A stretch of 64,000 bases of DNA from NCBI GenBank assembly GCA_018402585.1, contig JAGYIO010000002.1, positions 65,341-129,340 of the forward strand, read 5' to 3'. The number at the start of each line of letters is the position of its first letter. Positions within the stretch are counted from its first letter, which is position 1. Under the pieces are notes generated by a model, which saw only the letters and a list, made by a program, of their open reading frames with translations, did no database searches and was not told where the DNA came from. Origin of the DNA: Chthoniobacterales bacterium (GTDB taxonomy: Bacteria; Verrucomicrobiota; Verrucomicrobiia; Chthoniobacterales; JACTMZ01). Of the stretch, positions 15,709 to 59,721 are shown in pieces. Made by a program: the position numbers and the translations under genes.

Positions 15709-15775
15709 GGTGGATCGCGATGTCCCTATCGCGATTTCCCCAGTGACATATCGCGCCGGGACGGCGCGATCCACC
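15709..15775. repeat. palindromic intergenic unit with 11-bp terminal inverted repeat GGTGGATCGCG (copy 1 of 2)
   Basis: GGTGGATCGCG...ATATCGCGCCGGGACGGCGCGATCCACC. A second copy in the same orientation lies at 59574..59635. Confidence 0.7.
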
Positions 15776-20908: not shown

Positions 20909-21093
20909 CATGAGAAAGGCGTGGAGCAGGGTAGGTGCGGGTTGTTCACAGCCTTATGATTGATAGTCTGGTTGGCTTTCAAGAATTCCCCAAACTCAGA
21001 GGTTGTGAATAAAGCGCCCGATTCCATAGGTCCTGATTTGAAACTTGAAATTAAAGATTTCCGCACGGAGAGACGTCGTTAGGATGATCGGTC

Positions 21094-25380: not shown

Positions 25381-25405
25381 CAGATTTGAAATTGGAGATT
25401 TCAGA
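25381..25405. repeat. AT-rich word repeat CAGATTTGAAATTGGAGATTTCAGA
   Basis: Near-identical to 28381..28405 (1 mismatch by eye). A diverged relative lies at 29771..29798. Confidence 0.6.
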
Positions 25406-26069
25406 GGATTTTCGCTCGCTCGTTTTCGGTGAGTTCGCGCCATTGGCTGGGGGCGAGGTCGGCGGGGAGTTGGAATTGGCCGATGGCGGTGCGGAGGAGG
25501 CGGAGGGTGGGGTGCCCGACGGCGGCGGTCATTTTGCGCACCTGGCGGTTGCGGCCTTCCTGCAGGATGAGTTCGAGCCAAGATGTGGGGATGTTTTCAC
25601 GGTGGCGGATGGGCGGGTTGCGAGGGGGGAGGAGGAAGGATGTGGAGCGGATGGTGACGGGCGGGCCGCCCGTGCCCCCTGGTTCTGGGTGGATGCGGGT
25701 GGCTTGGGCGGGGAGGGTTTGGTGGCCTTCGATGAGGACGCCGGTGCGGAGTTTTTCGAGGGCGGGCTCGGTGATTTTGCCTTCGACTTGGGCCCAGTAG
25801 GTGCGGGGGTGGGCGTTTTTTGGGTCGAGGAGATTGGTGTTGAGTCCGGGTTCGTCGGAGAGAAGGAGGAGGCCTTCGCTCTCGCGGTCGAGGCGGCCGA
25901 GGGGGTAGACGTTTTTCGGGAGGCCGAATTCGGACAGGGTGCGTTGTCCGGGGTGGTCGGGGGTGAACTGGGAGAGGACGCCGTAGGGTTTGTGCAGGGC
26001 TAGGAGCACAGTGGACAGTGTTCGGTGTTCAGTTTTCAGCCGGAAGGACGGAACTGAAGCGGAGGCCAA
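25401..26069 (-). CDS. rluE: RluE/RsuA-family rRNA pseudouridine synthase
   Basis: LLALHKPYGVLSQF, GRLDRESEGLLLLSDE and LQEGRNRQVRKM are family motifs. An alternative GTG start at 26009 is plausible because the first 20 codons are encoded by a GTTCAG word repeat (26016..26040). Confidence 0.82.
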   Translation of the reverse strand: MASASVPSFRLKTEHRTLSTVLLALHKPYGVLSQFTPDHPGQRTLSEFGLPKNVYPLGRLDRESEGLLLLSDEPGLNTNLLDPKNAHPRTYWAQVEGKITEPALEKLRTGVLIEGHQTLPAQATRIHPEPGGTGGPPVTIRSTSFLLPPRNPPIRHRENIPTSWLELILQEGRNRQVRKMTAAVGHPTLRLLRTAIGQFQLPADLAPSQWRELTENERAKIL

Positions 26070-34715: not shown

Positions 34716-34952
34716 CTTAGCCGTAACGATGCAGTTGAAGACGCAATAAAAGCGCGGCTTGGCTCGGTTTGTCCAGGGGGCACGGCCGTCCCGGCCGTGT
34801 TGTTTGATGTTGTTTGATCGTGACGGGCGGGACGCCCGTGCCCCTTGGCCACGTGCCAACTCGCTCACCAAATAGTTAGTCAACTCTCGCCCAGGCGCGC
34901 CTCTGTGGCTGCGCCCGTAAATGGCGGAATGTTTTGCATCGTTACGGCTTAG
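34716..34952 (+). mobile_element. MITE-like element, copy 1 (about 237 bp, terminal inverted repeat CTTAGCCGTAAC / GTTACGGCTTAG)
   Basis: It aligns end to end with 49561..49797 at roughly nine-tenths identity by eye. It contains hairpins CACGGCCG-TCC-CGGCCGTG and ACGGGCG-GGA-CGCCCGT and has no coding capacity. Confidence 0.65.
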
Positions 34953-34990: not shown

Positions 34991-35191
34991 ATGAGCATCG
35001 CGACTTTGCAGCAAGAGGTGCAGGCTTTGCCGGCTGAGGATCAGGATAAGTTGGCGGCCTTCCTTCTTTCGCTCCGGATGAAGCGCGACGGTCTGCTGGA
35101 GGAGATCTCGCGCCGGTTGGATGACAGCAACCCGTCAGGCTGGGTCGAGTGGAATGCTCTCAAAGGCTCCGCCGACAAGAAAAGCGCGTGA
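34991..35191 (+). CDS. putative addiction-module antitoxin component
   Basis: Start taken at MSIATLQQEVQALPAEDQDKLAAFLLSL. The L.LP..ER..LA pattern is typical of the short antitoxin-like family that pairs with RelE/ParE. Confidence 0.55.
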   Translation: MSIATLQQEVQALPAEDQDKLAAFLLSLRMKRDGLLEEISRRLDDSNPSGWVEWNALKGSADKKSA

Positions 35192-35319
35192 AACCCTACG
35201 CGGTTTACCTGCGTATCGAAGCGGCTGAGTTGCTGAAATCTGTCGCGACGCGGAGGGAACAGCGGGCGGCGGTGATCAAGCGCGCGCCGTGGAAATCCAG
35301 ACCGCTCATCAAATGGTGA
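35188..35319 (+). pseudogene. truncated RelE/ParE-like toxin (43 codons)
   Basis: Its GTG overlaps the antitoxin stop (GTGA). VKPYAVYLRIEAAELLKSVATRREQRAAVIKR resembles a ParE/RelE N-terminus, but the frame stops after 43 codons. Confidence 0.4.
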
Positions 35320-35389
35320 GCGCAATCCCGCACCCGCGGCCGTCTGTTTGCACCGCGGATAAACCGGTTGTTTTCGTTTGGTTACGGGC

Positions 35390-35520
35390 TCAGGCGGCCA
35401 GTGAATCTGCGCGGATGATTTGCGACCGCGCGTGGCGCTCGTTCCAGGCCGTGATTTGACGGTCGGCGGTGATCGAGGGCACGCCGAGGAGAAGATGACC
35501 TTGGGGGTTGCGGTCAAGGC
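35390..35520 (-). pseudogene. 3' remnant of a second PIN-domain (VapC) toxin gene
   Basis: LLLGVPSITADRQITAWNERHARSQIIRADSLAA parallels the C-terminus of the intact VapC at 35986..36402 (LVLGVPLITADHQIISWNERHARLQIIRADSLAT). No PIN N-terminal half is present. Confidence 0.55.
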
Positions 35521-35569
35521 GGGGTGAGAGCACTCTTCGGCGATGCACCCGTCGCTGCGGTCTCCCGGG

Positions 35570-35965
35570 ATGATTGCGGTCATTGCCTTGGCCTCGCTTC
35601 TGGCCGGGGCGTGTGAGCCTCGGCGCGCAGGGCATGCGCTGGAAGGAGGTTGGTTAGCGGATGACGGGACCGTATTTGTTTTCCGTCCGGACGGGACTTT
35701 CCACGGCTACGATTTTCGAAAGCACGAGATTTGGGGCAACTGGGTCACGCTCTCACGGGTCCGCATTGGTTTCCAAAGTCTGTTGCACGATTCCTTTTAC
35801 AATCCGCAGTATGCCATCCTCGACGAGATGAACCCCGACCGCATGAACTACATTGTCACCGGTGGCAACAACTTCATCGGTGCGCGCCGCGTGGATCTGG
35901 AAGAAGCCGCGGCAGCGGTGCGTTTGATTGTTGAGCCGAAGGTGCATCGGCCCGAGGCGGATTGA
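35570..35965 (+). CDS. hypothetical lipoprotein
   Basis: Start taken at MIAVIALASLLAGAC (lipobox). An alternative start is at 35543. I recognise no family. Confidence 0.5.
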   Translation: MIAVIALASLLAGACEPRRAGHALEGGWLADDGTVFVFRPDGTFHGYDFRKHEIWGNWVTLSRVRIGFQSLLHDSFYNPQYAILDEMNPDRMNYIVTGGNNFIGARRVDLEEAAAAVRLIVEPKVHRPEAD

Positions 35966-35985
35966 CCGAAAAGTTTCCGCCCGCC

Positions 35986-36402
35986 CTACGTCGCCAATGA
36001 GTCCGCGCGGATGATTTGCAAGCGCGCATGGCGCTCGTTCCAGCTGATGATTTGATGGTCGGCGGTGATCAGGGGCACGCCGAGGACGAGCGCCGTGGCG
36101 ACGATGAGGCGATCAGCGGGGTCGCCGTGGAAATCTTCCAAACGACAGCTTTCGAGGCTGATCTCGGGATGGAGGGGTTCGAGGCGGACTGGGGGCTGGA
36201 GATTTTCGCGGATCCACCGGTCCACCTCAGGCTGCAATTCGAGGCGGCCTTTGGACGCCAGCACGGCCACCTCCCAGATGGAAATCGCCGGGACAATCGC
36301 GGTGCCGCGGAAGTTTTCCAAGGCCCGGAGTTGCCGGTCACCGGCGGACGCGCGCAGCCAGATGTGCGTGTCGAAAACGGCCGCAGCGGTTTTCTCAAGC
36401 AC
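35986..36402 (-). CDS. vapC: PIN-domain toxin VapC
   Basis: The GTG start overlaps the antitoxin stop. FDTHIWL (first acidic residue), SIWEVAVLASKGRL and HGDPADRLIVATAL are PIN motifs. Confidence 0.85.
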   Translation of the reverse strand: MLEKTAAAVFDTHIWLRASAGDRQLRALENFRGTAIVPAISIWEVAVLASKGRLELQPEVDRWIRENLQPPVRLEPLHPEISLESCRLEDFHGDPADRLIVATALVLGVPLITADHQIISWNERHARLQIIRADSLAT

Positions 36403-36619
36403 TGGCCTGCCAGATTTCGCCCGTGGCGAGGGCATCGTCGTGCAGGGCCACGGTGCCGGACGCCCGTCCGAACAAAAGGGGCGCGGGTGCCTGCTCGACC
36501 GCGACCAATTCAACGGCCGGCTGTCCGTGACGGCTGACCACAATAGAACACTTCTCGCGTTGTACCTTCTTGATCAGGCCGAGGCACTTGGCTTTAAATT
36601 GGGTGACTGTCACTTCCAC
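36395..36619 (-). CDS. Phd/YefM-type antitoxin
   Basis: 74 aa. MEVTVTQFKAKCLGLIKKVQREKCSIVVSRHGQPAVELV is a typical prevent-host-death N-terminus. It lies directly upstream of vapC. Confidence 0.8.
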   Translation of the reverse strand: MEVTVTQFKAKCLGLIKKVQREKCSIVVSRHGQPAVELVAVEQAPAPLLFGRASGTVALHDDALATGEIWQASA

Positions 36620-36719: not shown

Positions 36720-37895
36720 ATGACGCGGAACGGAGAACAGCGGGCGGCGGTGCATTTGGATGCGGATGCCTTTTTTGTCGGGTGCGAGGTGGCTTCGGAG
36801 CCGCGCTTGCGGGGCAAGGCGGTGGCGGTGGGGGGGATGAAGCGGGGGATTATTGCTTCGGCCAGTTATGAGGCGCGGAAGCTGGGGGTTTACACCCCGA
36901 TGCCGACGGCGCGGGCCCTGAAGATTTGTCCGCACTTGATCGTGCTGCCGGGAGATTACGAGAAGTATGAGCATTTCTCGCGGCTGATGTTTTCCTTGGT
37001 CCATGATTACACGCCGGTCGTGGAGGTGGGGTCAATCGATGAGGGCTACGGGGATTTGTCCGGGGTGACGCGGTGGAGTCCGCGCGAAGCGGCGGAGCGT
37101 TTGCGGCGTAATATCCGCGAGCATTTGCGGTTGTCCGTCTCGCAGGGGCTGGGCACGAACAAGCTGGTCTCGGCCGTGGCCTCGAAGTTGCGCAAGCCGG
37201 ACAATTTTCTCGAAGTGCCGGCGGGGACGGAACGGGATTTTCTCGCCCCGCTCGAGGTGAAATGGCTGCCCGGGGTGGGGGCGAAGCTGGAGCGGGTCTT
37301 CCAAGCGGCGGGCTTGCTGCGCATTGGCGAAGTGGCGGGGGCCACGGTGGAGAGCCTCGAATTAATCGCGGGGTCGGGGGCGGGTCAGTTGTCGGAATTT
37401 GCCCGGGGGATCGACGAGCGTCCGATCGTGACCGAGCGCGAGGATGCGCAGTCTTACGGGAAGCAGGAGACGTTCGAGGAGGACACCACGGATGAGGAAT
37501 TTGTGCGGCGCGTGCTCCGCGGGATGGCGGATCATTTGCTGGCCAAGGTGCGGGCGGACGGAAAGATGATCCGGTGTGCCGAGGTGCGGTTGCGTTACAA
37601 CGACATGGAGCAAAGCCGGCGGAGCGAGAGTCTGGAGGAGCCGACGGATTTGGAGACGGATATTTACGGGGTGATCGATCGGCTGGTGCGGCGGGCCTGG
37701 GATCGGCGGGTCAGTTTGCGTCTGGTCGGGTTGAAATTATCACGGGTCTACGACGGGGGCGGGTGGCGTCAGACGGGGCTGGATTTGCCGGGTACGGGTT
37801 ATGACAAAGAGACGCGGCGGGTTTTGGCCCGGGTCATGGATGAGGCAAAAATTCGTTATGGGAGCGGGGCTGTGGTTCGGGCGCACCAATTGAAG
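36720..37895 (+). other. dinB: Y-family polymerase (DinB/Pol IV) module of the fused ORF
   Basis: VHLDADAFFVGCE (two catalytic Asp), SIDEGYGD (Asp-Glu), SQGLGTNKLVSAVASKLRKPD and a little-finger region. Confidence 0.85.
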
Positions 37896-40800
37896 GCGGG
37901 GCGAAGTGCTCAGTGTTCAGTTTCCAGTGTTCAGCAGAAATGTAGCGGCGGCCTCCACGCCGCCGGTTGTTATGGACAACAGCCGGCGAGGACGCCGCCG
38001 CCACAAAAGGTAGGGACGAGCGGCTCGCTCGTCCGTGCCGTGAAGAGCGGACCCGCAGGCCGCGGGTCCCTGCCTGCGCTGAATGTGAAGAGTTGCTTCA
38101 GCTTTCTGGATTCGTTGCTCCGGCCGGGAGACATTGTGCGGCTGGCGGGGGAGCGGGGGATGAAGGCGGTGGCGGTGACCGATCCGAATTTGCACGGGGC
38201 GGTGGAGTTTTCTGCCGCGGCGAAGGAAGCAGGGATCCAGCCGATCGTGGGGGCGGAGGTGAAGGTGGGGGGGATGAGGTATTTGGCCTATGTGGAGAAT
38301 GTGGTGGGGTATCGGAATTTGTGCGGGTTGTTGTCGGGCGAGATAGAACATCGGCAGGATGCCGATGCCACGTTACAGGGACTGATCTTGCGGCCGGTCA
38401 CGGCGTTTCCGGAGGTGCGGTATGCTTCGGCGCGGGAGGCGAAATTTTATGAGGTGGTGCAGAGTATCCGGACTCTGTCTTTGGCGGGGCAGGGGCAGGG
38501 GGGGAAGCGGCGGGGGGATTTTTCCTGGGGGCGGGAGATCAAGGCGTCACCGGGGATGCAGCGGGATGCGGAGGAGATTGCCGAACGGTGCGGGTTTGTT
38601 TTGCCGATCGGCGGATTGAAGTTTCCGCGGTTTGCCCCGCCGGATGGATCTTCGCCGCGGGAGTTTCTCGCCCGGCTGGCCCACGAGGGGATGAGGTGGC
38701 GCTACGGGGTGGCGCTGTCCGGTGGAGTGCGCCGGCAGGTGGAGGAGGAATTGCGCATGATCGGCGAGGTGGGCTACGAGGAATATTTTTTGGTCGTCTG
38801 GGATTTGCTCCAGGGTTGCCGGGAGCGGGGGATCGAATGGATCACGCGGGGGAGCGCGGCGGATTCGTTGGTCTGTTATTGTCTTGGGATCAGCACGGTT
38901 TGTCCGGTGCGGTTCGAATTGTATTTCCGGCGCTTTCTCAATCCGGAACGGATGAAGTTGCAGAAGTTGCCGGATATCGACCTTGATTTTCCCCACGACC
39001 GGCGGGACGAGGTGGTGGACCTGATTTTTGCCCGTTATGGCCCGCACCATGCGGCCGTGGTCGGGGGATTCAACACGTATCAAGGTCGTTCCGCTTTTGC
39101 CGATATCGCCAAAACGCTGGGGGTTTCCCAATTCCAGATCCGGCGCATGACGGAAAAATTGCCGCAGACTTCGGCCCGTGATGTGGCCGGGGCGGCCCGG
39201 GACGGGGTGGAGACGAGCGGGTTGGCCTGGGAGGAGAATCCGTATCAGGCGGCCCTGAAATTGGCGGCGCGGCTCGACGGGTTTCCGCGCCACGCCAAGA
39301 TGCATCCGTGCGGCGTGGTCATTTCGCGCCAGCCGGTGGGGGAATTGACCCCGCTGTTCACCAGTGCGAGCGGACGGGCGACGACGCAATTTGACATGGA
39401 GGCGGTGGAGGCGATGGGGTTGGTCAAGCTGGATATTCTCGCGCAGGGCGGGCTTGCCGTGCTCCGTGATGCGCGGGCGGCGTTGCGGGAGAAGGGGATC
39501 GATCCACCGGACCCGGGGTTATGGGATGATCCGCACGTCTGGCAGATGATCGCCGAAGGTGAGGCGCGCGGGGCGCATCATATCGAGAGTCCGGCCATGA
39601 CCTCATTGGCCCGGATGGCCGGGGTGCGGGCCATCGATCAGTTGATTGCCATTGTCTCGGTGATCCGTCCGGGTGCGGCGAACAGCCTGCGCAAGGAACA
39701 GTTCGCGCGGCGGGCGCGGGGTGAGGAGCCGGTGACCTATGTGCATCCGAGCTTGGAAGCAGTCTTGCGCTCGACTTACGGGGTGGTGGCTTACGAAGAG
39801 CATGTGTTGCAAATTTGCGAGGTGTTCGCGGGGTGGGAAGCGGGGCGGTCGGATCAATTGCGGCGCTTGCTCGTGAAAAACCGGATGGCGCAGGTCGATT
39901 CCTGGCGGGAAGAATTTGCCGCGGCGGCGCGGGTCGTGGGGCGGACGGATGGCGAGATTGCGGACGTGTGGGATTTGCTCATGAAATTTCGCGGGTATGC
40001 CTTTTGCCGGGCGCATTCCACGGCTTACGGGTTGGAGGCTTACGAAGCGGCGCAGTTGAAACGGTATTGGCCGGCGGAGTTTTTGGCCTCGGTGCTGACC
40101 CACGGGAAGGGATTTTACTCGCGGTTGTTTTACACCATCGAGGCGCGGCGGTTGGGGGTTTTCTTCGGGGGGCCGGAGATCAATGGAGAGGTGCGGCGGT
40201 TTAGGGCGGAGAAAGGGAAAACCGCTGAGGGTGTGGAGGGGAGAGAAAGTGGCATCGGCATCTTGCCGATGATGGGGGGAGGACATCGGCAGGATGCCGA
40301 TGCTACTTGGGTGGCGCGCGGCGCGGGTGCGGCGATCGTGACGGGCGGGACGCCCGTGCCCCCTGGGGATACGGGGAAGTTTTCCGTCTGCAGTGTTCAG
40401 CGTTCAGCCGGAGCAAGGAGGGCCGAAAAGGATGCGGAGGGCACGGAGGGGAGAGAAAGTGGCATCGGCATCTTGCCGATGATGGGGGGAGGACATTGGC
40501 AGGATGCCGATGCTACTTGGGTGGCGCGCGGCGCGGGTGCGGCGATCGTGACGGGCGGGACGCCCGTGCCCCCTGGGGATACGGGGAAGTTTTCCGTCTG
40601 CAGTGTTCAGCGTTCAGCCGGAGCAAGGAGGGCCGAAAAGGATGCGGAGGGTACGGAGGGGAGAGAAAGTGGCATCGGCATCTTGCCGATCATGATGGGG
40701 GGACATCGGCCGGATGCCGATGCCACGATACGGAGAATCAAGGTGCCGCTTTGTATGATCAAGGGATTGTCGGAGGGGTTGTTGGAGCGGGTGGAGGTGG

Positions 40801-41465
40801 GGCGGCCGTTTGTTTCGTTGGCGGATTTTTGGCGGCGGGGTCGGCCGCAAGGGGAGGAGGCGATGGCCTTGTTGCGGGCGGGGGCGTTTGATCGGTTCGG
40901 GCCATCGAGGACGGAACTTTTTTGGGAGTTGCGGGCCTTGGCGCCTTGGACCGCGGGGCAGGGGTTGCTTTTGGAGGCGCGGGGGGCGGCGTTGCCGGAG
41001 GGCCGGACGGAACCGGGGCGGTTGGAAAGGTTGCGTGATGAGCAGGAATTGCTCGGGTTTACGGTGGGGGGACATCCGGTGGAACTTTTTCCGGAGGTGG
41101 GGTGGGAGACGTATTGTCCGGTCGCTGAGGTGCGGAAGTTGCCGGGTCAACGGGTCACGACGTGCGGGTTGGTCGTGGCCCAGCGCTTGCATCATCAGTC
41201 GGACGGACGCGCTATGAAATTCATCAGCCTGTGCGACCGCACGGACATCCTCGAGTGCGAGATTTTCGCCGAGGTTTACCGGAAGTGCGGCGGGGTGTTG
41301 GCCCGGTGGCCGGTGGTCGAGGTGACGGGGAAGGTGGAGACCCTGGGCGGACGCGGGTGTGTGTTGCGGGTGGAGGAAGTGCGGCGGGCGCGGGAGCTTA
41401 GGAAGCCGGACGCTCGTCGTAGGGCATCTCGGCCAGCTGGAATTTCGGCACCGATTGGCGGATGA
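36720..41465 (+). CDS. dnaE2: single ORF encoding a DinB-type Y-family DNA polymerase fused to error-prone polymerase DnaE2
   Basis: 1581 codons without a stop. The N-terminal 392 aa are Pol IV-like and aa ~451-1581 are a C-family polymerase. See the module features below. Confidence 0.8.
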   Translation: MTRNGEQRAAVHLDADAFFVGCEVASEPRLRGKAVAVGGMKRGIIASASYEARKLGVYTPMPTARALKICPHLIVLPGDYEKYEHFSRLMFSLVHDYTPVVEVGSIDEGYGDLSGVTRWSPREAAERLRRNIREHLRLSVSQGLGTNKLVSAVASKLRKPDNFLEVPAGTERDFLAPLEVKWLPGVGAKLERVFQAAGLLRIGEVAGATVESLELIAGSGAGQLSEFARGIDERPIVTEREDAQSYGKQETFEEDTTDEEFVRRVLRGMADHLLAKVRADGKMIRCAEVRLRYNDMEQSRRSESLEEPTDLETDIYGVIDRLVRRAWDRRVSLRLVGLKLSRVYDGGGWRQTGLDLPGTGYDKETRRVLARVMDEAKIRYGSGAVVRAHQLKAGRSAQCSVSSVQQKCSGGLHAAGCYGQQPARTPPPQKVGTSGSLVRAVKSGPAGRGSLPALNVKSCFSFLDSLLRPGDIVRLAGERGMKAVAVTDPNLHGAVEFSAAAKEAGIQPIVGAEVKVGGMRYLAYVENVVGYRNLCGLLSGEIEHRQDADATLQGLILRPVTAFPEVRYASAREAKFYEVVQSIRTLSLAGQGQGGKRRGDFSWGREIKASPGMQRDAEEIAERCGFVLPIGGLKFPRFAPPDGSSPREFLARLAHEGMRWRYGVALSGGVRRQVEEELRMIGEVGYEEYFLVVWDLLQGCRERGIEWITRGSAADSLVCYCLGISTVCPVRFELYFRRFLNPERMKLQKLPDIDLDFPHDRRDEVVDLIFARYGPHHAAVVGGFNTYQGRSAFADIAKTLGVSQFQIRRMTEKLPQTSARDVAGAARDGVETSGLAWEENPYQAALKLAARLDGFPRHAKMHPCGVVISRQPVGELTPLFTSASGRATTQFDMEAVEAMGLVKLDILAQGGLAVLRDARAALREKGIDPPDPGLWDDPHVWQMIAEGEARGAHHIESPAMTSLARMAGVRAIDQLIAIVSVIRPGAANSLRKEQFARRARGEEPVTYVHPSLEAVLRSTYGVVAYEEHVLQICEVFAGWEAGRSDQLRRLLVKNRMAQVDSWREEFAAAARVVGRTDGEIADVWDLLMKFRGYAFCRAHSTAYGLEAYEAAQLKRYWPAEFLASVLTHGKGFYSRLFYTIEARRLGVFFGGPEINGEVRRFRAEKGKTAEGVEGRESGIGILPMMGGGHRQDADATWVARGAGAAIVTGGTPVPPGDTGKFSVCSVQRSAGARRAEKDAEGTEGRESGIGILPMMGGGHWQDADATWVARGAGAAIVTGGTPVPPGDTGKFSVCSVQRSAGARRAEKDAEGTEGRESGIGILPIMMGGHRPDADATIRRIKVPLCMIKGLSEGLLERVEVGRPFVSLADFWRRGRPQGEEAMALLRAGAFDRFGPSRTELFWELRALAPWTAGQGLLLEARGAALPEGRTEPGRLERLRDEQELLGFTVGGHPVELFPEVGWETYCPVAEVRKLPGQRVTTCGLVVAQRLHHQSDGRAMKFISLCDRTDILECEIFAEVYRKCGGVLARWPVVEVTGKVETLGGRGCVLRVEEVRRARELRKPDARRRASRPAGISAPIGG
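37911..38069. repeat. cluster of REP-like elements forming the in-frame linker between the DinB and DnaE2 modules
   Basis: It contains the word CAGTGTTCAGTTTCCAGTGTTCAGC and three hairpins. These are CGGCGGC-CTCCAC-GCCGCCG (37946..37965), GGACGAGCG-GCT-CGCTCGTCC (38014..38034) and GGACCCGC-AGGCC-GCGGGTCC (38049..38069). Confidence 0.7.
38349..38367. repeat. hairpin CATCGGCA-GGA-TGCCGATG inserted in frame in the PHP domain (reads HRQDADA)
   Basis: Perfect 8-bp stem. The identical hairpin recurs at 40284..40302, and degenerate versions lie at 40494 and 40703. Confidence 0.65.
40205..40730. repeat. 210-bp tandem repeat, about 2.4 copies, in frame inside dnaE2
   Basis: GGAGGGGAGAGAAAGTGGCATCGGCA starts at 40235, 40445 and 40655. 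Copy 1 and copy 2 differ at 2 of 210 positions (40287/40497 and 40442/40652). Confidence 0.9.
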
Positions 41466-42117
41466 AATCCTTGAGCATATCGAGCGTCTGCTGGTCGGTC
41501 TTGGCCCCGGGCCGGAGTCCTTCGAGCACGGGGGCACTGACGATCACGTAGGCCCAGCGGTGCTGGAGTTTTTTTACCACCATGTCCCAATTGGTCTTGG
41601 CCAAGCGAACCCAGTGGTGCGGGGTGGAGGTATCCTTGCCGACAAACCAGTAAAGGAAGTAGCTCCTCAAGTTGACCCTCTGGCCGGGGGCGGTTTCGAC
41701 TTCGCGATTGAGGGTCAGCTTCATCACGTCGAGCGTGCGGCCGTTGGCCAGGGTGATGGGCAGGATTTCGCCCGCTTGAACCGACCAGCCTTGCCCCGGG
41801 AGACAGACTTCGGGGCGGTGAATGCTGCGTTTTTCGCCGCCGCTGAGTACGACTTGGGCGGTGAGCGAATTACCGGTGAGGTCTTGGTAGATTTTTTTCT
41901 CGAATTCGGTGTCACCGGGCAGGAGGGCCAGCTCGCTCGGCGAGACCGGCTCGCTCGTGCCCCAATATTCACCAACCAAGGTGGGAAGATCCATGATCAC
42001 CCCGGATTCGGGCGAGATATTGGGCGGCGCGCTGGCGCGGCAGAGCCAGAGGGTGAGAGCGGCCAACCCGACCACCGTGCCGGAGCGCCACCAGGGGATG
42101 TCGAGGGCGCGGATCAT
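41398..42117 (-). CDS. epsI: exosortase-associated EpsI family protein
   Basis: Start taken at MIRALDIPWW, with an ATGA overlap with the exosortase stop. It has an N-terminal TM segment, and HRPEVCLPGQGW is the EpsI signature. Confidence 0.85.
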   Translation of the reverse strand: MIRALDIPWWRSGTVVGLAALTLWLCRASAPPNISPESGVIMDLPTLVGEYWGTSEPVSPSELALLPGDTEFEKKIYQDLTGNSLTAQVVLSGGEKRSIHRPEVCLPGQGWSVQAGEILPITLANGRTLDVMKLTLNREVETAPGQRVNLRSYFLYWFVGKDTSTPHHWVRLAKTNWDMVVKKLQHRWAYVIVSAPVLEGLRPGAKTDQQTLDMLKDFIRQSVPKFQLAEMPYDERPAS

Positions 42118-43085
42118 GGGGTTGGTCTGGCCGCGGGTGGCGGGGTGAAGCGTTGCAGCAACCAGCCGATCCCGAGCATGCCGCCGAGGGCAACGGCAAA
42201 GACAAGGAATCCGGAGAGCAGGTGGAAAGTGGTCGGCTCTTCCAGCGTGCCGATGGCGGTTTCGGGTCCGAGAGCGATGGTGCCCAAAGTGAGCATGATG
42301 ATGCGGGCAAAGTTGCCGGCCACGGCAAGGGGCACTGAGGCGAGGAAGACGATCCATTTCTGCCAGGATTTTTCCATCACGAGGAAGCCGTAGAGGGCAC
42401 TGACCATCATGAGGGCGAAGAGCGAACGGATACCGCTGCAGGGATCGGCCACATCAACAGCAAACCGCTCGCCGGCCGCGAGGCCGGCAACGAAGTCGGG
42501 CGTCGAGACAATGGAGGTGCCTTGTTGCAGGCAGGGGAGACCGATCAGATTGAGGAAGCTGACGCTGACCGTGGACATAAAAATGCGCAGGGGGAAGGCG
42601 AGGAAGTTGTCCATGAAGGGCAGCGGGAACATGAAGGCGAGGAAGGCGATGGGAAACAGAAGTGCCTTGAGCCATGACCAGCCGAGGAACCAAAGGACGA
42701 GCGAGCCGATGAATCCGAGCATGGCGGCATAGCCGACGTAGACATTGTCCGCAAGGTAGCCGACCCAATAGAGAAAGAGGGCTCCGAGCAAAGTGGCCAA
42801 ACCGACCCAGGATCCACTGACCGGCAGTGCGGCGAGTGCTTTGCGACGGTAGATGACCAACCCGAGAGCGAAGAGGGGCACGAGCCAGCAGTGTTCCCAC
42901 TCCGGGTTGTTCCGCCAAATCCAGTTCATGAACTCGAACATGCTGGCCCGGGTTGCCCCGTAGCCCGAGGCGTAGGGGAACCAGAAAAAGAGGACGTAGA
43001 AAATACCGGCCGCGCTGAGTGCCGCGAAAATGTTCGGCGGGACGAGGGCGGCGCGCCAATCCGGGGTCAGAGTGGTGGAGTTCAT
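42114..43085 (-). CDS. exosortase (EpsH/XrtA-like)
   Basis: Start taken at MNSTTLTPDW. It is polytopic, with the catalytic Cys context DPCSGIRSL, Arg in GNFARII and His in TFHLLSGF. Confidence 0.88.
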   Translation of the reverse strand: MNSTTLTPDWRAALVPPNIFAALSAAGIFYVLFFWFPYASGYGATRASMFEFMNWIWRNNPEWEHCWLVPLFALGLVIYRRKALAALPVSGSWVGLATLLGALFLYWVGYLADNVYVGYAAMLGFIGSLVLWFLGWSWLKALLFPIAFLAFMFPLPFMDNFLAFPLRIFMSTVSVSFLNLIGLPCLQQGTSIVSTPDFVAGLAAGERFAVDVADPCSGIRSLFALMMVSALYGFLVMEKSWQKWIVFLASVPLAVAGNFARIIMLTLGTIALGPETAIGTLEEPTTFHLLSGFLVFAVALGGMLGIGWLLQRFTPPPAARPTP

Positions 43086-49560: not shown

Positions 49561-49797
49561 ACTTAGCCGTAACCATGCAGTCGAAGACGCAATAAAAGCG
49601 CGGCTTGGCTCGGTTTGTCCAGGGGGCACGGCCGTCCCGGCCGTGTTGTTTGAGGTTGTTTGATCATGACGGGCGGGACGCCCGTGCCCCTTGGCCACGT
49701 GCCAACTCGCTCACAAAATAGTTAATCAACTCTCGCCCACGCGCGCCTCGGTGGCAGTGCTGGAAAAGGCGGAATGCTTTGAATTTTTACGGCTTAG
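49561..49797 (+). mobile_element. MITE-like element, copy 2
   Basis: It has the same termini and internal hairpins as 34716..34952, in the same orientation. It lies 190 bp upstream of cyoA. Confidence 0.65.
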
Positions 49798-59573: not shown

Positions 59574-59635
59574 GGTGGATCGCGCTAAGCGCGATAACCC
59601 CGGTGAAATATCGCGCCGGGACGGCACGATCCACC
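59574..59635. repeat. palindromic intergenic unit, copy 2 (GGTGGATCGCG ... CACGATCCACC)
   Basis: It matches 15709..15775 at both termini and in the ATATCGCGCCGGGACGGC core. Confidence 0.7.
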
Positions 59636-59721
59636 TGCACGACAATCTTCACGATTCGCCTGCTGACAACACCCATGGCCCCGAAAAATCGCGACAGTCC
59701 GCGCTAAACGGTTAAGTTGTC

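Follow-up and report, generated by a model that had tools for sequence, protein, structure and literature searches.

A tandem array of REPIN-like hairpins, probably translated selfish DNA, in a surface loop of a Y-family/DnaE2 fusion polymerase of Chthoniobacterales

A 210-bp segment is repeated in tandem, in frame, inside a polymerase gene of a Chthoniobacterales bacterium, and the question raised by this locus is what such DNA is and how it came to be part of a catalytic polypeptide. The gene lies in a stretch of 64,000 nucleotides of contig JAGYIO010000002.1, called the window in the following. Our answer, to which we give a probability of roughly 0.7, is that the array is translated selfish DNA built from hairpins of the REP/REPIN type (repetitive extragenic palindromic sequences, and inverted pairs of these that form hairpins) and sits in a permissive surface loop of a polymerase in which a Y-family enzyme and DnaE2 are fused. 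Judged by analogy the array works like the Rickettsia palindromic elements (RPEs) and is built like REPINs; it is a candidate for full REPIN membership.

An earlier note on this DNA, made from the letters alone, had described an in-frame tandem period of 210 bp with a partial and diverged third copy. Tandem Repeats Finder, run on positions 38000-43000, gives the same picture: a single array with period 210, 2.3 copies, 97% matches and 0 indels. Copy 1 (40235-40444) and copy 2 (40445-40654) differ at the two positions the note had counted, 40287/40497 and 40442/40652; both are C/T differences and one of them is an R -> W substitution. Copy 3 is incomplete, about 76-83 nt, and has 89% identity to the first of the repeated blocks across 83 nt. 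The unit corresponds to 70 codons, and of the six frames of 40205-40730 only the one in use is free of stops. The hairpins and words listed in the note are all present, far above chance. The window has 7 occurrences of the hairpin CATCGGCA-NNN-TGCCGATG, where chance would give 0, and ACGGGCGGGACGCCCGT is found at 40341 and 40551 and also, as the note had seen, at 34823 and 49669, the two copies of an element resembling a miniature inverted-repeat transposable element (MITE); one more copy, with 1 mismatch, stands at 25657. The extra segment, put by the note at about 165 residues, runs from aa 1168 to 1335 and is flanked by ...GGPEINGEVRRFRAE on the N-terminal side and by IRRIKVPLCMIKGL on the C-terminal side.

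The character of the modules is best seen in the core of the unit, which in doublet 1 reads GTGG-CATCGGCATCTTGCCGATG, ATGGGGGGAGGA, CATCGGCAGGATGCCGATG-CTAC, that is two inverted 19-nt palindromes with the head GT[GA]G and a 12-nt spacer. Such a doublet folds as one 25-bp DNA hairpin with a dG of -27.4 kcal/mol (z -11.4), and the entire array as RNA has a z of -10.75. A REPIN is defined as two inverted REPs which together with a spacer form a hairpin (PMC3337134), and doublets of this kind are found at 40249-40306, 40459-40516 and 40669-40726. Each of their arms has the palindrome and short conserved head of a REP, here GT[GA]G plus CATCGGCA-NNN-TGCCGATG. GT[AG]G is, as Nunvar and colleagues reportedly described in 2010, the usual REP head.

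The likeness is not limited to this gene. The doublet form, with spacers of 12-14 nt, recurs in several Chthoniobacterales genomes and was seen, among the matches listed, in L030, L046, L062, L094 and L096; hairpin copies in other genomes are, among the same matches, both intergenic and within open reading frames (ORFs). These matches come from a scan of a genome collection with CATCGGCANNNTGCCGATG, which gave at least 120 of them; the pattern is palindromic and permissive and has many chance matches in unrelated phyla, and the scan served for sequence contexts only and gives no per-genome copy numbers. Perfect 8+3+8 hairpins in the 1.1 Mb of DNA fetched carry GTGG more often than any other 4-nt head. 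Cousins with compensatory changes in the stem keep both the head and the TCC loop: CATGGGCT/AGCCCATG, CATCGGCT/AGCCGATG, CACGGGCA/TGCCCGTG and CATTGGCT/AGCCAATG. The first stem among the cousins was the search pattern and is thus ascertained; the heads and the cousins are not. The 64 kb of the window hold 14 hairpins of this style where 1.3 are expected, and 8 of the 14 are inside the polymerase ORF. The hairpin modules listed in the note are thus real, and its account of them has to be widened, since they belong to dispersed REP/REPIN-like families that also occur in frame in other loops and genes.

With REPs and REPINs as described by Bertels and Rainey (2011; PMC3116915, PMC3337134) the modules share the palindromic core with a conserved short head, the two inverted copies which with their spacer make one long hairpin, the presence of several families per genome, and the existence in Chthoniobacterales of genes for the REP-associated tyrosine transposase (RAYT) with flanking doublets. 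They differ as follows: REPs and REPINs are mostly extragenic by definition and the elements here are intragenic and in frame, the spacer is just 12-14 nt, and the same 19-nt core is found in three phyla. A larger composite mobile unit, made of heptamer words and the doublet, was considered and rejected, since the words do not adjoin the doublet in 15 Verrucomicrobiota loci. A literature search found no paper on repeats in Chthoniobacter.

The doublets would originally have been spread by a single-strand transposase of the RAYT type. A motif scan of the six-frame translation found no RAYT in the window. A Terrimicrobiaceae contig (L026) carries a RAYT fragment that scores 82.7 bits against an NCBIfam cut-off of 80 (REP-associated tyrosine transposase) and is followed downstream by one hairpin. 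The fragment has many homologues, several of which are named RayT or come from Chthoniobacterales. All four of the full-length Chthoniobacterales RAYT loci inspected (L147, L149, L150 and L152) are flanked on both sides by REP doublets, and the order therefore has active REPIN/RAYT systems. The flanking REPs have GGAG/CTCC ends and different stems, e.g. GGAG-GGACGGG-cgctgt-CCCGTCC. Many of the RAYT homologues come from very short contigs; assemblies breaking at their repeats would produce this.

How the array itself arose can be read from its blocks. Each end of the 210-bp unit is an 83-nt block in direct orientation, and the two 127-nt segments between the blocks are identical to each other. 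Block 2 follows block 3 in its leftmost 11 nt and block 1 in the remainder. It is thus a chimera of its two neighbours, which points to unequal recombination within the 36 nt that are identical in blocks 1 and 3 as the origin of the duplication. The ancestor of the window sequence had two REPIN-like doublets in direct orientation, 210 bp apart; the interval between the blocks containing them would have been duplicated by unequal crossing-over or replication slippage in this run, the exchange lying in or adjoining the left REP arm. Copies 1 and 2 acquired their two differences afterwards, as point changes. These copies have diverged by about 1%, while the window and its nearest orthologue (L001) have diverged by about 8% at the nucleotide level, so that the duplication is young or the copies are being homogenised. 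As the array consists of 210-bp repeats at 99% identity its length would be expected to be unstable. The unit has no terminal inverted repeats and is for this reason not a MITE, an element recognised by terminal inverted repeats and a target-site duplication.

The insertion as such is older than the duplication. Measured from one conserved anchor (GFYSRLFYTIEARRLG) to the other (PLCMIKGLSEGLLERV), the loop has 24-26 residues in the shortest orthologues (e.g. ISFSGPDINGEVRRFSAASAAIAV), 31-66 in most, and 212 in the window. The range is 24-66 residues among about 65 protein homologues. The extra residues form a mosaic of recurring modules: FSVFSVQCSAG, (E)KRKTAEGAE.TE, KAADGWASRPYRGGE, ESGIGILPMMMGGHRQDADAT, VAPASPPAECGGSTPGTAPLQ and LAKARLAKPRLSLPFSAG, with KRKTAEGAE, ADGWASRPY and GIGILPMM..HRQDADAT as further forms in which modules recur. 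FSVFSVQCSAG is the same word as CAGTGTTCAGCGTTCAGCC of the array. Using tblastn, and hence independently of gene calls, we found 24 metagenome loci, 20 of them with both anchors. The loop length is a multiple of three and the loop is free of stops in all 20, which represent about 12 distinct versions; three further loci lack the right anchor only and have intact minimal loops (e.g. NGGVREFMADRSRTIRV), and the fourth runs off the contig end. Other lineages carry other GTAG-headed inverted doublets in the loop DNA, namely GTAGCGCCGGCGTCCCCGCCGGCG + 15 nt + ACGCCGGGGACGGCGCCGCTAC in L136 and GGACGGCTGGCCTCC...GGAGAGGCCAGCCGTCCCTAC in L122.

In the nearest relative (P0001/L001, 92% amino-acid identity) the loop is NGDLGKFSVFRVQRSAGARRTEKDAEGTEGRESGIGILPMMMGGHRQDADATIRRIKV, and its DNA corresponds by orthology to the final 1.3 units of the array, in single copy. 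The note had taken the array for a recent and possibly length-variable insertion. The variable length is evident, from 24 to 212 residues between the anchors across lineages; youth belongs to the 210-bp duplication alone (2 differences in 210 bp against about 8% to L001), for the insertion is older and was already there, as the last 1.3 units, in L001. The comparison with orthologues which the note had asked for reveals different module mosaics per lineage at this site and not one conserved domain. The loop is thus an old insertion hot spot across Chthoniobacterales, filled with different repeat mosaics in each lineage, and the window is its extreme case.

What the insertion means for the protein depends on where it sits. 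An alignment with the Pol III alpha of Thermus aquaticus breaks at residue 877 and resumes at 903, the window having 194 residues between these points. We modelled ORF residues 930-1581 with AlphaFold2 from an alignment of 33 orthologues. In the model the insert has a predicted local distance difference test score (pLDDT) of about 18-30 and no secondary structure, and it is bracketed by strands at 1162-1165 and 1338-1341 whose regions reach about 87-94. As modelled, then, the insert is at the tip of a beta-hairpin at the finger-HhH junction, just before the HhH (helix-hairpin-helix) domain. Both the alignment gap and the model agree with the note, which had given this position as the short hairpin before the HhH region, and the structure prediction it proposed returns the insert as a disordered loop. 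The product would carry a roughly 168-residue disordered loop rich in Gly, Ala and Arg. The enzyme probably tolerates it, although DNA binding, or the contact of one polymerase part with the other, could be weakened.

Synonymous to non-synonymous codon differences from L001 are 46:15 in the Y-family part, 114:40 from PHP to finger, 27:22 from HhH to OB, 5:6 (about neutral) in the loop segment common to both, and 10:32 in the linker between the two polymerase parts. These counts indicate that the enzyme domains are under purifying selection and that loop and linker drift; they are silent on the effect of the last duplication, an event too recent to judge. A word-indexed protein search with the insert peptide gave 0 matches, and HMMER against 1.84 billion representative proteins gave 3, all to repetitive adhesin-like proteins and judged spurious; the insert is therefore not a protein family.

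The host had been named DnaE2 in the note, which is correct for its C-terminal part only: a DnaE2-type Pol III alpha is present, fused to a Y-family polymerase. Pfam finds IMS (13-156) and IMS_C (244-352), followed by PHP, DNA_pol3_alpha, finger, HHH_6 and the OB fold. The Y-family part (aa 13-352) scores as DNA polymerase IV and retains the catalytic motifs DADAFF and SIDE. The other part has PHP, palm/thumb/finger, HhH and OB in the order of DnaE2, stops about 28 residues beyond the OB fold and is without the C-terminal tau-binding domain. The curated models NF004225 (error-prone DNA polymerase) and NF004226 (DnaE) score 457 and 522 bits, both below cut-off, the match being split by the insert.

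The fusion is not an assembly accident, because more than 100 homologues (1340-1530 residues) have the identical domain set. Those with a named source are Chthoniobacterales/Chthoniobacteraceae, and several are named 'error-prone DNA polymerase' by JGI. In one relative (L146, 1746-5925) each of the two parts has an ORF of its own; the ORFs overlap in different frames, with GTG as the start codon at VLNVKSCFSF. In the DnaE2B-PolY-RecA modules (PMC12926913; PMC6511836) PolY and DnaE2 are separate proteins of an operon, whereas here they are a single polypeptide joined by a linker of repeat DNA; a covalent PolY-DnaE2 fusion is not mentioned in these two polymerase surveys. The linker is hypervariable among orthologues; when 103 full-length orthologues are aligned, it and a site in a loop of the PHP domain stand out as main hot spots of indels. 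The fusion may have come from read-through of an intergenic repeat cluster, the linker being made of CAGTGTTCAG words and GTAG-headed hairpins.

We considered an intein or intron as the source of the insert and rejected it, the ORF having no Hint or endonuclease Pfam domain and 37700-41000 no intron-like Rfam match. Rfam on the same interval returned one chance-level miRNA match and nothing else, and terminator, promoter and Rfam scans of 37700-41600 showed nothing relevant in the array. The genes downstream of the polymerase (EpsI/exosortase, glycosyltransferases) have an order common to the window and the nearest relative. Upstream, at 35041-36543 on the minus strand, are two paralogous ORFs with a 94-nt stretch in common at 86% identity; the ORF at 35986-36543 has a PIN domain and the one at 35041-35583 no Pfam match. 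The corresponding place in L001 is occupied by a PIN/PhdYeFM pair, so that the two ORFs probably form a toxin-antitoxin locus.

Hairpins of these families also lie in frame elsewhere. At the PHP-loop site of the polymerase one REP of the doublet family is read as HRQDADAT, where baseline orthologues have LLSGTNKDVLEGL and other lineages carry different modules (SGRSRAGRPCPL, RRPGTAALQ). The 33-nt block GATCGTGACGGGCGGGACGCCCGTGCCCCCTGG of the array is a second dispersed hairpin with 5 copies in the window, at 25650, 34816, 40334, 40544 and 49662. The first of these lies in the gene of the RluE pseudouridine synthase, which reads the block from the strand opposite to that used in DnaE2. Compared with E. 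coli RluE the protein has a 14-aa insert (GGTGGPPVTIRSTS) which coincides with the block, the block accounting for much of it, and which is a gap in the alignment with the solved structure 2olw. Two more copies are within the 206-bp MITE-like elements, whose internal inverted hairpin pair includes the block; the element at 34716 is the MITE-like relative in the window. In other genomes the CATCGGCA hairpin is found in frame, among the matches listed, in a Spartobacteria RNase R between the RNB and S1 domains (L062, about 7127), in a Sedimentisphaerales ResIII helicase (L106, about 5467), and in an acidobacterial nonribosomal peptide synthetase (NRPS; L017, 2031-2292) as eight tandem 30-nt units read (THRQDADATK)n. 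The features of this locus are collected in Table 1.

Table 1. Coordinates of the polymerase gene, the array and its parts, and related repeats in the window
Feature	Position	Strand	Remarks
Host ORF, 1581 aa: Y-family polymerase and DnaE2-type Pol III alpha with a repeat-built linker between them	36720..41465	+	
Linker, Y-family to DnaE2 part	37900..38080	+	CAGTGTTCAG words and GTAG-headed hairpins (38010-38034, 38049-69)
Single REP of the same family (CATCGGCAGGATGCCGATG-CCAC) in the PHP-domain loop, in frame, read HRQDADAT	38349..38371	+	
Translated insert, ORF aa 1168-1335, predicted disordered	40221..40724	+	AlphaFold2 and Taq alpha alignment
Tandem array, period 210 bp, 2.3 copies	40235..40723	+	Tandem Repeats Finder, copy comparison
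83-nt homology block 1 (family D3), with REPIN-like doublet 1 (40249-40306)	40224..40306	+	
83-nt block 2 (chimera, recombination junction), with doublet 2 (40459-40516)	40434..40516	+	
83-nt block 3, with doublet 3 (40669-40726)	40644..40726	+	orthologous to single copy in L001
36-nt run identical in blocks 1 and 3, inferred crossover zone, includes left REP arm	40235..40270	+	
33-nt hairpin block GATCGTGACGGGCGGGACGCCCGTGCCCCCTGG (family D4)	40334..40366, second copy 40544-40576	+	
Heptamer-periodic word CAGTGTTCAGCGTTCAGCC	40391..40409, second copy 40601-40619	+	in KFSVCSVQRSAG (SVQRSA stretch)
33-nt block in frame in the RluE pseudouridine synthase gene (25401-26069)	25650..25682	-	
206-bp MITE-like element (family D2), terminal inverted repeats CTTAGCCGTAAC	34716..34921	+	second copy 49562-49767, 94% identical

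Some other repeats were seen in the window. At 15714-15770 two convergent ORFs are separated by a REPIN-like doublet of a different family, GTGG-ATCGCGAT...ATCGCGAT-CCAC, of which there is a partial copy at 59590-59636. A 29-nt word with heptamer periodicity, ATTTCAGATTTGAAATTGGAGATTTCAGA, occurs at or near gene ends at 21036, 25377, 28377 and 29767 and looks like another dispersed intergenic repeat family. Next to the second copy of the MITE-like element the G+C content is slightly reduced, to about 0.58-0.60 at 49-54 kb.

The known system that resembles the array most in its working is that of the RPEs (Ogata et al., 2000), which are described in PMC10969869 as palindromic inserts in frame in unrelated genes. 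The likeness is close: short palindromic repeat DNA is translated in frame at sites compatible with the fold, with several families per genome. In our case the unrelated genes are the polymerase gene with its three sites and those of RluE, RNase R, the ResIII helicase and the NRPS, and the sites are the tip of a hairpin predicted to be disordered between confident flanks and the alignment gap of RluE. The differences are that RPEs belong to Rickettsia and the present elements, with other sequences, to free-living Verrucomicrobiota; that the units here are shorter (hairpins of about 23 nt and doublets of about 58 nt) and stacked as mosaics in one loop; and that insertions have come back to a single loop of one gene throughout an order, with a secondary tandem duplication on top. 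The likeness is one of working and not of membership; with another phylum and another unit size, sequence homology to the RPE families would not be expected. The intragenic ERIC, BOX and MITE fusions (Delihas 2007, cited in PMC10969869) are likewise small non-autonomous repeats whose open frames extend ORFs; those cases are sporadic, and the array here has neither terminal inverted repeats nor target-site duplications.

Several observations count against reading the array as REPIN-type selfish DNA. No target-site duplications were seen for it, and for a near-identical 210-bp repeat the copy number is provisional. The copies in the window are mostly in the polymerase gene alone, which is a 64-kb view of an extragenic bias that for REPs is defined genome-wide. 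The REPs at the inspected RAYTs end in GGAG/CTCC and not in GT[GA]G, and no cognate RAYT was found for the CATCGGCA family. Finally, the identical 19-nt palindrome occurs, among the matches listed, in Verrucomicrobiota, Planctomycetota and Acidobacteriota; REPs are as a rule lineage-specific, and the same core in three phyla is unusual.

Could the insert, above all after the last duplication, have ruined the finger/HhH junction, so that the DnaE2 part is inactive and the gene on its way to a pseudogene? It is 3 to 8 times longer than the loop of any of about 85 orthologues, it adjoins the DNA-binding domain that in models of ImuB-DnaE2 contacts the Y-family thumb (PMC12926913), and selection has had too little time since the duplication to leave a trace. 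Yet the ORF of 1581 codons is intact, the frame used by the insert is the sole stop-free one of six, the catalytic motifs are present, the flanking domains are under purifying selection relative to L001, every lineage tolerates some insert at this point, and the flanking strands are modelled confidently. We hold this inactivation to be unlikely, though it is the rival that has to be taken most seriously. A quite different doubt is whether the copy number is real, as the true genome may have one 210-bp unit or another number and short reads resolve near-identical repeats of this length poorly. Assemblers, however, tend to collapse such repeats and not to expand them; the copies have two private differences, the middle block is a clean chimera like a real recombination product, and the orthologous single unit is present in independent assemblies of relatives. 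We therefore lend little credence to an artefact.

The hairpins might also act as nucleic acid, slowing or attenuating translation of the mRNA or protecting the RNA upstream and so tuning the output of DnaE2 relative to the Y-family part. In favour of this are the high stability of the structure (z -10.75 as RNA, stems of 25 bp), the clustering of hairpins in one gene, within its linker and DnaE2 part, and the known effect of REPs on the expression of neighbouring genes (PMC3337134). But no terminator-like T runs follow the hairpins of the array and no Rfam family matches them; moreover their content and number vary freely among close relatives and the shortest orthologues have none, so that they cannot be required, and a regulatory role of this kind seems to us improbable. 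The lowest probability goes to the idea that the insert is retained for the peptide it encodes, as a functional protein segment such as a flexible tether or a new interaction motif. That the frame is always kept and that some peptide modules recur in many orthologues would fit such a segment; the recurrence is however explained by the DNA repeats themselves, the substitutions in the loop are close to neutral (5 synonymous, 6 non-synonymous), unrelated proteins contain the same DNA, read in both orientations, and neither a predicted fold nor relatives among protein families were found.

If the array is translated selfish hairpin DNA, insertions into this dispensable gene would survive selection only where they are in frame, free of stops and placed in a tolerant loop, and resident repeats would attract or seed further ones. 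A wider proposal can be made, tentatively and with the odds against it: a coding-competent REPIN-like family with a GT[GA]G head and a GGA/TCC triloop, present in three phyla, would routinely enter genes in frame and give rise to disordered loops, inter-domain linkers and gene fusions. The Y-family/DnaE2 fusion of Chthoniobacterales would then be due to read-through of a stop-free intergenic repeat cluster, and the error-prone polymerase gene would be a preferred landing site.

REPs and REPINs are regarded as extragenic, and apart from the RPEs of Rickettsia we know of few clear cases of translated palindromic selfish DNA. Here one loop of a conserved polymerase has been colonised repeatedly across an order, and one lineage is caught soon after a recombinational expansion. 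The repeats probably explain the odd low-complexity peptides HRQDADAT, WHRHPADD, FSVFSVQCSAG and ADGWASRPY in proteins of these phyla. The orthologues may serve as a natural series for how much disorder the finger/HhH junction of Pol III alpha tolerates, for the choice of site and survival of mobile hairpins, and for gene fusions built with linkers of such DNA.

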